Positions 3,243-62,780 of a stretch of DNA of 64,000 bases are shown piece by piece. The stretch spans positions 8,494,001-8,558,000 of the forward strand of contig OX597830.1 in assembly GCA_951406725.2 (NCBI GenBank). Direction: 5' to 3'. Under the pieces are notes generated by a model. That model was not told where the DNA came from. It saw nothing but the letters and a program-made list of their open reading frames with translations, and ran no database searches. Within the stretch, counting starts at the first letter, position 1. Every line of letters starts with the position of its first letter. The position numbers and the translations under genes were made by a program. This DNA comes from Octopus vulgaris. Its lineage: Eukaryota.

Positions 3243-3404
3243 CAAAACAAAAATGGGACAAGAATGCAAAACATCCAGACAGTTAGGTGATACAAAAAAG
3301 GGACAAAAAAACCACCCAGAGAGACGATACAAAGAAAACAAGGACGAGTCATTCGAGTTTTCTTTCCTCAGTCGAGTTCCAGATTATCTTTGGAATTTCG
3401 GCTG

Positions 3405-3448
<44 letters not shown>

Positions 3449-6735: not shown

Positions 6736-7036
6736 GTGCGTGTGTGTGTTTGTGTGTGTATGGATATGTTTGTGTGTTTGTGTTTGTCCCATCATCGCTT
6801 GACAACCGATGTTGGTGTGTTTATAACCCTGTAACTTAGCGGTTCGGCAATAGAGCCCGATAGAATAAGTACTAAGGCTTACAAAGAATAAGTCCTAGGG
6901 TCGATTTGTTCGACTAAAAGCAGTGCTCTAGCATGGCCGCTGCCAAATGACTGAAACAAATAAATGAATAAATGAACACATACATACATACATAAGGGAT
7001 CTAATGCGCTTGGCTTAGATTTCCCTTGGGGGCTGC

Positions 7037-7112
7037 CCAGATCGGAGCAATCTCAAGATTAATCAGCCGAAATTGCGAAGATGATCTGGTTCTTGACTGA
7101 TGACTGAGGGCT
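7037..7112 (+). ncRNA. Reverse-order (scrambled) HHR-like motif, family X
   Basis: gcaa-TC-tcaaga ... agcc-GAAA-ttgc ... tcttga-CTGATGA: stems III and I pair perfectly; flanking helix ccagatc/gatctgg. Confidence 0.55.
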
Positions 7113-7195
7113 TCGAATGTCCCGTCCTGTGGTTCTTGTGTCGTCTCTTTGGTGTTTCTTGTTCTTGTCCATGTCTGTATTTATTTATTTTTTAC

Positions 7196-7827: not shown

Positions 7828-8299
7828 TACATGTGAGTTCTCTAGACATCCTAGTGGTTGAGGCTATACTCATGAAGTAATGTAGATAATTAAGTAACAT
7901 AAACAGATTTCAAAAGTTCATTAAAGTTCTTTAAAGATGATGTACAGTCTTATCACAGAATTTTAAAAAGTTTTAATAGCATCACAGAGAAGGTGACCTA
8001 ATCCATAGTGCACATATGAATTTCCAGAGATATGATGAGGGAAATTCATATGTGCACTATGGATTAGGTCACCTTCTCTGTGATGCTATTAAAACTTTTT
8101 TAAAATTCTGTGATAAGACTGTACATCATCTTTAAAGAACTTTAATGAACTTTTGAAATCTGTTTATGTTACTTAATTATCTACATTACTTCATGAGTAT
8201 AGCCTCAACCACTAGGATGTCTAGAGAACTCACATGTATTTTAGCTGATGAGTACGGGACACGTTTATATGCTGTAATTTTTGCAACTTTTTAATAAAG
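7769..8299. mobile_element. Fold-back element with ~257-bp arms and 14-nt loop, Penelope-like remnant
   Basis: 7769-8025 vs 8040-8299, nearly identical; overlaps the HHR; right arm ends at a family A SINE. Confidence 0.7.
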
Positions 8300-19466: not shown

Positions 19467-19688
19467 TATATATATATATATTTATATATATGTTAATAAA
19501 ATAGAACATATGCGTATATATAAACATATATGTACGTACCTACCTCTACATGTACATATACACGCATATATGTGTACAGGACACCAAAAAGACGTCGAAC
19601 ACATAGAGAGACGAAAAACATAGACACAAACCAAGGAACAGGACAAGCAAAAAAAAAAAAGGATACAAGACAATTAGCACAACGAAAA

Positions 19689-19765
19689 ATCCCCTTCTTC
19701 AGTCGCTAAGGTTTCATCTACTCTACGTTTCGAAGGATAAAAGCGAGACGTATCTTCGAAGAAAC
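19689..19765 (-). ncRNA. Reverse-order (scrambled) HHR-like motif, family Y, copy 1
   Basis: tacg-TC-tcgct-ttt-atccttc-GAAA-cgta-...-agcga-CTGAAGA-aggggat. Confidence 0.6.
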
Positions 19766-20573
19766 TTCCTTCCTGCGAAAAGCAAATCAATTAAAATTCT
19801 GAGATCTTTTCGCAGAGGGGTAAAAAATGGGGAAAAAAAAAAAAAAAAAAAAGCAAGACGGTAACGACAGTACAAACATATAAACAGTAAAAAAATATAT
19901 ATAAACAGTGGGAAAATAAATATATAACAGTGAGAGACAGGACAAGGAGAACAAGATAAGAAGGGCTGTTTACGCCAGACGAAAAAAGTATTGCAAACGC
20001 TGGATTATAGTGGACGACGAGAGAGCAGGAATGTCGACCAGTGGCCTTAGAAGGCGGGCGAGAAAAGACAGGATAGCAGTTACGACGGAAGTATCGTCGC
20101 AGATGGACGACGGGAATGGGGGAGGAGGAGCAAGAGGAAGAGAGAGAAGAAGGGGAATGGTGCGAGGAGACCATGAAGAATGGTGAGGGGGAGAGAGAGA
20201 ATGAAGAATGAGAGAGAGAGGAAGAGACAAGTTAAGTGAGGAAAAAGGCGAAAAAGGGAATGGGATAGAAAGAAAGAAAGATGCAGAATCGCGTGAGAGT
20301 TAATATCAAGGCTAACTTGATAAACAGAACAATCTTACTTAATAGGGTGCGTGCGTTTAGTCGTATAATATGTTAATAAAATAGAACATATGCGTATATA
20401 TAAACATATATGTACGTACCTACCTCTACATGTACATATACACGCATATATGTGTACAGGACACCAAAAAGACGTCGAACACATAGAGAGACGAAAAACA
20501 TAGACACAAACCAAGGAACAGGACAAGCAAAAAAAAAAAAGAAAGGGATACAAGACAATTAGCACAACGAAAA

Positions 20574-20650
20574 ATCCCCTTCTTCAGTCGCTAAGGTTTC
20601 ATCTACTCTACGTTTCGAAGGATAAAAGCGAGACGTATCTTCGAAGAAAC
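20574..20650 (-). ncRNA. Reverse-order (scrambled) HHR-like motif, family Y, copy 2
   Basis: Identical to 19689-19765, 885 nt away. Confidence 0.6.
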
Positions 20651-20966
20651 TTCCTTCCTGCGAAAAGCAAATCAATTAAAATTATATTTATATAATTAAA
20701 ATATATTTATATAATTAATATATATTTATATATATATATAAAGTAAGGTATATTCCGTTAGGAACCTAGCAGAGTGCAAGTTAGATCTCGCTCACCTTAA
20801 CCATTACCATTACCAAATAACGGATAGTATTACTAAATATTTCCAGTCTATGTTTGGGCATTTTTCGTGTGTGAAATTAAAATTGAATAAGATCGAGTCA
20901 ACAAGAAGATGGATGTATTAGCATTGAAGTCGAAGGTTTTGTAACTAACGGGAACAGCAGTTGTAT

Positions 20967-43394: not shown

Positions 43395-43515
43395 ATGCTT
43401 TCGGCACTTATGTTTCTCAAGCTGCTCATCCATCTAAGTACTAACTAGGCTCGACACTGCTTAAGTTCGCTCATCAGACGAGAACCATTGCTTTCAGCAT
43501 GATATGGCCATAAGC
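43395..43515 (-). pseudogene. 5S rRNA pseudogene, full length, diverged
   Basis: GCTTATGGCCATATCATGCTGAAAGCAATGGTTCTCGTCTGAT...TTAAGCAG...GTTAGTACTTAGATGG aligns end to end with metazoan 5S; several differences look like CpG decay. Confidence 0.85.
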
Positions 43516-44129
43516 CATAAACACATATATGCATACATATAGATATATGAACTGCATCATTTTTAACAGTGGATCTCGAAGTAGATTAAGATAAATAAAG
43601 CAAGTATGGAAAAGGTAATCTTTTTGTGAACAAGACAGGCATTTTACCATTGGACCAAAGTAAGCTCTCTAATTTTTTCATTTTCAGAATAAAATTTCTA
43701 AAGTCGATAGAGAAATACGAAATATTGCTTTGATCCAATAGTAGAATGCCTGCGATGTTGGCAGGGGTATAGGTTCGAGTCTGATAGACAGCCTTCGACA
43801 TTTTCTATCCAAAGATTTTTCACACAATATTTATGCAATTAGGTAAAAAAGACCGATAGAATAAGGCCCAGACTTTAAAAAAATGAATCTTCATGTCTAT
43901 TTCTGCGACTAAACAATTAAAGATGGAACTCCAGCATGACAACAGGTCAATGACTGAAACAAGTAAAAAAAAAAGCATCATATATATATATACCTAATTT
44001 TCTTTGGGTGTTACCCCGGGAGTTAACCGCATTAATCTCATCCACGGATTCAGTAATTTGAAGATTGTTTTAATATAAACACATGTGTGAAAGTCTATAA
44101 ATATCCGAGGAGTTTTTATAATTACAAAC

Positions 44130-58530: not shown

Positions 58531-58855
58531 TGAGTGAGAGAAGTAAAATATAAGAAGCCCAGTATACCCATCATGACTACCCCTCTGTTAAGGGTCACCA
58601 GGCACATGCATCACAATCATATGTGCGCGACATGGTGATCTTATAAATCGAGATATTATTATTATTATTATATAGATTCAAATTTTGGCACAAGACCAGC
58701 AATTTCGGGGGAGCGGGTAAGCCGTATATATTTTGTGTATACATGTATATAAATGTGTATATATGTACAAAATGCACGCGAGCACTCCACACAGACACAC
58801 ACACACACGCAAACACACACACACATATATATATATATATGTATATATTTATAGT

Positions 58856-59550
58856 GTAATAAATAAAATATATGCATACATACAAACATATATGTACGTA
58901 CCTACATCTACATGTATATATACATGCATATATAAATATATATACGTGAGTACAGGACACCACAACCAGACTCCGTTTAAGCCAGAAAAAAGACCTTTTC
59001 GTTGGTTTTTCTCGTTCGTTTTCTTGTTTATTTTGGTTTCTCGTATTGTATTTTCTTTTTATTTCTCGTTTTGTATTTTCTTGTGCATGTATTTTTATCT
59101 TGTATTTTATTGTGCAGTTTTATTGTTACGTCCTGTTTGTGTTACATTTTTTTCTTGCTTGTTTTTACCCCTCTGCGAGGTAATTTTATTTTAATTCTCT
59201 CGCAGGAAGACCTAGTTTTGACGAGTCGTGTCCTGTCTTGCCTTCGAAACACGCTTGAGTCTAACTAGCGACAGCTGATGATTGGGGATTTTTCCTTGTG
59301 TAGTATGTCCTATACTTTGTTTTTCTGTTGTAAAAAAATGTTTTTCCCGTTTCTGTTTCTCGTCCAGTTCCACGTCTCTGTTTTTCTGTTGTAAAAAAAT
59401 GGCTTTTCCGTTTTCGTTTCTCGTTGAGTTCTACATCTAGTTGTGGTGTCCTGTACTCACGTATATATATTTATATATGCATGTATGTATACATGTAGAT
59501 GTAGGTACGTACATATATGTTTGTATGTATGCATATATTTTATTTATTAC
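58856..59550 (+). mobile_element. Family Y element with 111-bp inverted termini (58856-58966 / 59440-59550)
   Basis: Termini homologous to 19488-19590; internal reverse-order HHR-like motif. Confidence 0.7.
59212..59288 (+). ncRNA. Reverse-order (scrambled) HHR-like motif, family Y variant
   Basis: cgtg-TC-ctgtc-ttgccttc-GAAA-cacg-...-gacag-CTGATGA-ttgggga; stems I and III covary with 19689-19765. Confidence 0.6.
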
Positions 59551-59626
59551 CCTATTGTCTGACAGCGCCTTCGCGTCGGGTTCGTTTCGATTCGTCGCTT
59601 CGTTCCGTTTCTTATCCTCCCAGAAC

Positions 59627-59707
<81 letters not shown>

Positions 59708-62201: not shown

Positions 62202-62570
62202 TATACATTTATATATATACTGTCCGCTTGACAAACGGTGTTGTGTTTTATCTCCTCGTAACTTTGCGGCTCGGCAAAAGTAGACTGATAGAATAAGTAT
62301 CAGGCTTTTTAAAAAATTACTAGGGTCGATTTATTCGACTAAAATTCCTCAAGGTGGTGCTCCAGCATGGCTGCAGTCACATGACCGAGACAAGTAAAAG
62401 AATAAAATAAAAAATCATAAAGGTATACACGCACACACACACACTCACACACACTCACACACACACTCATACATAAAGTCGTAAGACACCCGCTGTTTTT
62501 GTCCTGTTACTATTGTTATTGTTTTTTGTATTTAGTTTTTCCTCGTAGCTTAGTTTTTCCTTGGGGCTAG

Positions 62571-62646
62571 CCGGATCGGAGCGATCTCAAGATTAGTCAG
62601 CCGAAATTGCGAGGATGATCCGGTTCTTGACTGAAGATTAGAGGCT
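62571..62646 (+). ncRNA. Reverse-order (scrambled) HHR-like motif, family X
   Basis: gcga-TC-tcaaga...agcc-GAAA-ttgc...tcttga-CTGAAGA; flanking helix ccggatc/gatccgg is compensatory relative to the 7037 copy. Confidence 0.55.
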
Positions 62647-62780
62647 TCGAATGACCCGTCCGTTTTTTGTGTCGTCTCTTTGAGTGTTTTGCGTTCTTGT
62701 CCCATTTTGTATTTTTATATATATTTTTTATATATATATACCATACATGTATATATGTATATACAAACACACACATATAC

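Follow-up and report, generated by a model that had tools for sequence, protein, structure and literature searches.

A motif at positions 59212..59288 (plus strand) of a 64,000-nucleotide stretch of the Octopus vulgaris genome (contig OX597830.1; hereafter the window, with coordinates counted from its first nucleotide) has a non-circularly permuted hammerhead fold, which confirms the reversed-order hammerhead described in an earlier note on this DNA. In this copy the cleavage site comes first, GAAA second and CUGAUGA last. The reversed order itself is already published as type SGC (PMC10085705). What sets the octopus motif apart is the partner of stem II, and we consider it quite likely that the motif forms a non-circularly permuted hammerhead, with a strand from upstream completing its stem II, and would cleave itself in cis after C59232.

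Core and stems I and III

Block S (59227..59237; plus strand here and below unless stated otherwise) consists of one strand of stem III (59227-59230/59250-59253), UC (59231-59232) and one strand of stem I (59233-59237/59270-59274). The cut is predicted directly after the UC, at C59232, a placement on which the 5′ ends of copies also bear (see below). Block G (59240..59253) contains a stem II strand ending in C11.1 (59245), GAAA (59246-59249) and the second strand of stem III. Block C, without its stem II arm, contains stem I′ and CUGAUGA (59275-59281) at 59270..59281. All motifs named in the earlier note were found where it had placed them, and the bond that it had predicted to be cut, 59232/59233, is the one predicted here. 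The hammerhead core features CUGANGA, GAAA and the U-H site are present, and three covarying stems surround the core, including the G10.1-C11.1 pair when stem II is formed through the upstream strand.

Covariation of stems I and III had been proposed from a comparison of this element (family F1) with a homologous element at 19488-20683 (family F2). The latter lies on the minus strand, carries two copies of the motif (cut sites 19747 and 20632) and aligns with the present element along the 3′ part. Between the two families, 7 of the 9 pairs were changed on both sides (4/5 in stem I and 3/4 in stem III). Because a plain sequence alignment of the two elements slips by 3 nt in stem I′, two copies alone are no proof of covariation, and the family was tested. 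For this, 35 rows were chosen manually so as to be diverse and to include upstream sequence, and most came from loci of the first 100 pattern matches; the rows are related, and CUGANGA is invariant in 35/35 of them, the rows having been picked on that core. Together with three metagenome loci (38 in total) they were thinned to 25 sequences less than 80% identical to each other (the 25-row set). In this set stem I was 90% and stem III 86% Watson-Crick paired, bearing out the proposed covariation, and sliding the stems by 1-2 nt lowered the values to 12-23%.

The ribozyme fold is not the minimum-energy fold of the present copy in ViennaRNA, which cannot fold pseudoknots. No hammerhead was found among the 150 matches listed of the 373 from an Rfam scan of the window, and those listed were mostly microsatellite-driven miRNA matches. 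The window also contains a 5S rRNA-like match above the Rfam gathering score (43396-43515, minus strand, 55.4 bits), which is probably a pseudogene or a 5S-derived repeat and is also the source of a weak chance S-G-C match at 43519. A long near-perfect inverted repeat (hairpin) at 7981-8066, extending beyond 7870-8200, is unrelated to the motif.

A conventional type I hammerhead would use a core look-alike at 59218-59224, flanked by a 6-bp helix (59212-17/59263-68), and would be cleaved after 59261. In that arrangement, however, C3 is a U, stem I needs an extra base, and closed stems II and III did not form when the C, G, S order was tested. The absence of stem II agrees with the earlier judgement that this is the worse reading. 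The look-alike is also absent from other families, and we regard type I cleavage at this locus as extremely unlikely.

An upstream partner for stem II

Stem II of this copy had been called weak. We found that it is not, as the arm before GAAA (59240-59245) pairs with an upstream strand at 59206..59211, in which G10.1 is 59206, and not with the bases after CUGAUGA. An A at 59210, where close relatives have G in 28/30 matches, leaves five of the six stem II pairs in the present copy. In the 25 diverged sequences (<80% identical), the upstream stem II was 90% Watson-Crick paired, versus 23, 32 and 27% for the strand after CUGANGA with 0, 1 and 2 bulged bases, respectively. Across the 35 rows, G stands opposite C11.1 in 31, giving G-C at 10.1-11.1, and positions 2-5 of the upstream stem II show 3-4 Watson-Crick pair types. 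On average, 4.57 of 5 pairs were formed, compared with 2.96 after the arms had been swapped between families (maximum of 3.37 in 2000 swaps). Since a best-pairing search served to place both the cut site and the upstream strand, the controls, i.e. arm swaps and slides, carry the weight of this result. The pairs were counted on core-anchored positions because the MAFFT alignment displaced the upstream strand between families.

A cluster test was made with 142 copies that have stems I and III intact (75 unique sequences in 20 clusters). The upstream strand was located 21-27 nt before the cut and formed at least 4 Watson-Crick pairs in 17 of the 20 clusters, judged by the best member of each. A contiguous stem II had 0 pairs in 18/20 clusters, so that the uninterrupted block C of type SGC is not present there. 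With the upstream strand as the partner of stem II, the chain is opened between A9 and G10.1.

The motif could also be read as an ordinary type SGC hammerhead, in which the G-rich bases that follow CUGANGA would form stem II across a bulge of 1-2 nt, leaving the upstream strand to act as an inhibitory anti-stem II switch. With a 1-nt bulge, 3-4 mostly G-U pairs do form in some F1, F2 and F5-type copies, the upstream and contiguous helices of the present copy have similar duplex energies of about -3 kcal/mol, and a one-base insertion or bulge between A9 and G10.1 is described as tolerated in viroid and Penelope hammerheads in the available parts of PMC3705267 and PMC4209133. The contiguous registers, however, combine their low Watson-Crick pairing with little compensatory change, and the pairing is absent in other families, in L373 and L375 and in the cnidarian tail. 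Moreover, the tail after CUGANGA pairs upstream instead (helix A, see below), and the upstream strand, with its conserved G opposite C11.1, occupies the same site as stem II of the type CSG motifs of nematodes. An ordinary type SGC hammerhead is thus very unlikely, and the upstream strand is our preferred partner of stem II.

Helices around the opened junction

Helix I (59212..59217/59263-59268, 6/6 pairs), previously described as a distal extension of stem III, is formed between the bases immediately 3′ of the stem II 10.x strand and those immediately 5′ of stem I′, and ends 1 nt before stem I′ in the present copy. In the 25-row set it averaged 6.08 bp versus 3.58 bp in shuffles, with 0/500 shuffles reaching this value. 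The linker at 59218..59226 contains one strand of a 3-bp stem (59220-22/59259-61), GA (59223-24) and the type I core look-alike. On the opposite side, 59254..59269 comprises a 3-nt bulge, GA, the second strand of the 3-bp stem, the 3′ strand of helix I (59263-59268) and a 1-nt spacer.

The kink-turn consensus is a 3-nt bulge followed by tandem G-A pairs. Facing GA/GA steps beside the end of stem III were found in 25/35 rows (3.0 in shuffled sequences), and the canonical kink-turn spacing was found in 13/35 (0.2 in shuffled sequences), the present copy being offset by 2 nt. This conserved kink-turn-like GA/GA loop would probably supply the bend from stem III to helix I.

Two further helices lie at the opened junction. 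Helix A is a predicted pairing, supported by the minimum-energy fold, of 59168..59171 with 59284..59287 in the tail after A9; its family mean was 5.8 versus 4.12 in shuffles. Hairpin B (59173..59205, with arms 59173-59179/59199-59205) ends directly before G10.1. Both helices A and B also exceeded all 500 shuffles, with margins smaller than that of helix I.

The short spacer before stem I′ had led to the proposal that helix I must melt for cis folding, or that a second molecule supplies the CUGANGA strand (a switch or a dimer). Tandem units do exist, minimal Penelope hammerheads have been proposed to act as dimers (PMC4209133, as far as its available text goes), and the linkers of F2 and F5-type copies (window 19750-19765, minus strand) contain a 10-12 nt palindrome between helix I and stem III, which may form a small hairpin or serve as a dimer contact. 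However, all stems can be formed from one copy, so that neither melting nor a second molecule is required. In the accessible parts of Eckert 2023 (PMC10085705), disruption of the stem I-II interaction helix abolished cleavage, i.e. the equivalent helix is required and not inhibitory in SGC-3, and a natural type CSG sequence has its helix I separated from stem I by 2 nt and from stem II by 1 nt. Spacers this short are conserved across phyla. Since natural type CSG spacers have the same 1-2 nt and the helix is required in Eckert's RNAs, no melting, switch or dimer needs to be invoked. By this analogy, helix I appears to correspond to the required stem I-II interaction helix and to be a structural element rather than a switch, and we consider the melting or dimer model very unlikely.

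Host elements and the 5′ ends of their copies

The motif is located in the 5′-truncated body (58972..59555) of a non-coding Penelope-like unit of family F1, which has a tandem monomer of 867-870 bp and 85 exact anchor matches genome-wide. Upstream, at 58851..58970 (minus strand), lies an inverted copy of the element's 3′-terminal 120 bp, 97.5% identical to 59436-59555 in reverse, which is the 5′ inversion typical of Penelope-like insertions. Downstream, 59556..59631 contains an optional 3′ tail, with which the next tandem unit begins, and then (TA)n. Among the 38 F1 3′ ends seen, the tail was present in 13, 23 ran directly into a TA-type repeat and 2 were of another kind. F1 copies have a fixed 3′ end with (TA)n or a short tail beyond it, are 5′-truncated and sometimes inverted, and occur in tandem. 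We rejected a reading of the 120-bp inverted ends as those of a MITE or DNA transposon, since the left arm is missing from other copies, which occur in tandem and differ in their 5′ truncation.

The same fold occurs in two other families of the window. F2 is represented at 19690..19815 (minus strand, cut site 19747) and by a second, 5′-truncated copy at 20575-20683 (minus strand, cut site 20632). F3 is represented at 7000..7120 (plus strand, cut site 7052), with further copies at 62548-62689 (plus strand) and 3316-3407 (minus strand), the last starting about 9 nt after the cut. F2 and F3 behave like F1, and by their tandem units, truncation and inversion, optional tail and fixed 3′ end the hosts of F1-F3 are non-autonomous Penelope-like elements. 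The window families also have the (TA)n insertion bias of the Naiad clade. Reverse transcriptase (RT) was not seen in the F1, F2 or F3 loci, and a tblastn search gave matches to simple repeats only. The ORF of the Naiad clade, with its N-terminal GIY-YIG, CxC and DKA, is found behind the fold elsewhere (L373) but not in these loci, so F1 can be called a Naiad-type derivative at most. Contigs from four presumed-RNA runs cover the F2 unit, and two of them have an 880-base return joint, for which tandem DNA is an equally good explanation.

We then compared the 5′ ends of copies with the predicted cut. The F1 set comprised 83 copies whose anchor lies downstream of both candidate sites, and in 26 of them the 5′ end is located between -99 and +38. 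Nine of these 26 fall within -2..+5 of the predicted cut (P about 1e-5), and three within -49..-3. None of the 83 starts at the rival type I site, +27..+31, which is a weak point against that reading since 0.9 would be expected. In F3, TA-abutting ends were inspected by eye among the matches listed: 18/21 loci had ends at 0..+8 and three at -22..-1, and among 57 further downstream, 33 had ends at +9..+13 and 24 at +14..+35. The density of F3 ends thus rises about 15-fold at the predicted cut and decays downstream. Ends at +9..+13, where TA microhomology is favourable, are as dense as those at 0..+8, so the peak is a step at the predicted cut and not a single base. Stalling of the reverse transcriptase at a knot could contribute to the F3 peak, and microhomology with TA together with polymerase stalling may shape it.

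It is conceivable that the fold is conserved but catalytically dead, or that it is a protein-binding or reverse-transcription stop element, with the clustered 5′ ends arising from stalling and microhomology. The reach of the peak to +13 would suit this explanation, and we found no tested precedent for an opened A9/G10.1 junction in the literature searched. On the other hand, families whose stems are unrelated retain every catalytic residue and a U-H site, and the end density is low just upstream of the cut within the same structure and jumps only at the cut. A dead fold is therefore very unlikely, and cleavage at the predicted bond remains the preferred reading.

Abundance in the octopus genome

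The pattern CGAAA-20..32 nt-CUGANGA, which makes no stem requirement, gave 44,242 matches genome-wide versus 9,241 for the reversed control. Core matches are thus in excess by about 35,000, and the motif is present in tens of thousands of element copies. A strict descriptor applied to 600 kb of random genome in all six block orders gave 2 SGC, 12 CGS and 1 GCS matches; as shuffles gave 0.6 SGC matches, the strict descriptor alone is not significant for this order. The S-G-C block order was confirmed by 100 SGC matches across the window and 90 family loci.

Several families with hammerheads of ordinary order (type I or minimal) are also present in the genome (L093, L100, L117, L124, L127, L129, L159 and L383). 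Locus L075 (minus strand, 2985) is a possible further S-G-C family with weak stems, in which an upstream stem II is not clear.

Relation to Naiad elements

In the accessible text of Craig 2021 (PMC8557442), Naiad elements are reported without canonical hammerheads, with only a 'core' or 'half core' noted, and are described as having (TA)n targets, tandem and inverted 5′-truncated copies and an optional tail. The window elements share these last features. Unlike a Naiad, however, the window element is non-coding, and its likeness to the Naiad tail is one of fold, not of demonstrated sequence homology.

We inspected by eye 13 of the 54 published Naiad consensus tails in the supplement of that paper. 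The opened fold was found in four of the 13 (two octopus, one hydrozoan and one decayed squid) and an intact-core type CSG in two, both from nematodes (Naiad_Ppac and Naiad_Parc); neither form was seen in the other 7/13. The 3′ UTRs of Naiad_Ppac and Naiad_Parc have a 6-bp stem I, a 5-bp stem II, an extended stem III and a 7-bp helix I with spacers of 1-2 nt, and their true stem II is located where the opened form has the upstream strand. The tails of Naiad-1_Skow, Naiad-1_Chem and Naiad-2_Chem, which have no hammerhead, have in common another 3′ motif that looks structured and is possibly a different RNA element.

The octopus Naiad tail pattern had 312 matches in the genome versus 0 in the control. 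The same fold was found downstream of decayed Naiad RT ends in this genome in 13/30 loci (0 on the opposite strand). With unrelated stem sequences, it was also found downstream of Naiad ORFs in 3/11 metagenome loci; in the other eight the motif was not seen, three of these ending at the stop codon. The ORFs behind which the motif lies have an N-terminal GIY-YIG and a DKA-type RT, and one metagenome carrier, L373, has an open frame of 914 aa with an N-terminal GIY-YIG. Among 150 scored matches in the octopus genome no intact Naiad ORF was found, only decayed ones.

The genome also contains a young Penelope-like family (L157, L162 and numerous identical G000 matches) in which an open frame of 781 aa carries a C-terminal GIY-YIG; this family is a candidate mobiliser. 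The SGC motif was not seen in its examined 3′ sequence. Tandem repeats make up the 3′ region of one subfamily, and a minimal type I motif lies close by in a related family.

Discussion

Type SGC order was named, and its cleavage in vitro shown, by Eckert 2023 for HRIMA-1 and variants (PMC10085705; here and below according to its accessible parts). The octopus motif shares with type SGC the S-G-C block order, the core residues, a short stem I-to-stem II linker and the interaction helix. In type SGC, however, block C is uninterrupted, whereas here stem II comes from upstream. Eckert's descriptors specify CUGAUGAG or CUGAUGAUG, then stem II directly, and a linker of at most 15 nt; the linker here is about 16-21 nt, and there are two extra helices at A9/G10.1. 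With type CSG, known in that report from two metagenomic sequences only, the strand order is identical from the stem II 10.x strand to stem III, but in type CSG the stem I-CUGANGA strand precedes and joins G10.1, whereas here it follows stem III. The motif would work like a type SGC or CSG hammerhead but does not have the uninterrupted block C, and it is thus distinct from the published type SGC.

With the minimal type I hammerheads found in Penelope-like elements and in non-LTR retrozymes (PMC4209133; bioRxiv 10.64898/2026.07.22.740005, as far as available) the motif has in common one hammerhead per tandem non-coding Penelope-like unit and tolerance of an extra base between positions 9 and 10.1. 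These hammerheads differ in having the type I order, a short palindromic helix III and a proposed dimeric action. For a Penelope-like element of Anolis, insertion in vitro did not depend on cleavage by the hammerhead (PMC11167929, available part). The literature searched, with subscription papers mostly outside its reach, contained no account of a hammerhead opened in its core, nor of Naiads with permuted hammerheads.

In the model that we propose, the elements would follow one another as helix A, hairpin B, stem II (10.x), helix I, stem III-UC-stem I, stem II (11.x)-GAAA-stem III, helix I, stem I-CUGANGA and helix A. The chain would adopt the pseudoknotted fold of types SGC and CSG, entering and leaving it between A9 and G10.1, a place at which natural hammerheads are described as tolerating a one-base insertion (PMC3705267 and PMC4209133). 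Helices A and B are probably stacked and would hold A9 beside G10.1, while stem III is probably turned back towards helix I by the kink-turn-like loop. The ribozyme would be located near the 3′ end of Naiad-type Penelope-like elements and of their non-coding tandem derivatives. One cut per unit in multimeric or read-through transcripts may yield templates of unit length, and a reverse transcriptase that starts from the (TA)n target would run off at or near the 5′ ends made by the cut.

With somewhat less assurance than for the predicted cis cleavage, we think it probable that this is a seventh natural hammerhead wiring outside Eckert's six, i.e. an active monomer opened at A9/G10.1 with two plug-in helices and a kink-turn; that it is the missing ribozyme of Naiads across animal phyla, of which nematodes keep the unopened CSG ancestor; and that cuts in vivo are frequent enough to set the 5′ ends of new insertions.

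Eckert's scheme of six permutations states the assumption that each of the three blocks, and hence block C, cannot be interrupted, and the core-opened form would break it. The descriptors require an uninterrupted block C, and this accounts for their missing a motif that exceeds its control by about 35,000 matches in a single genome. The SGC RNAs of that report are given there only from metatranscriptomes and environmental data, not from genomes of known organisms, and the present observations move non-circular permutations from environmental RNA into animal chromosomes. For ribozyme engineering, an entry within the core would provide a new position for coupling sensor domains, and for the Naiads the opened fold offers a testable answer to their apparent absence of hammerheads.
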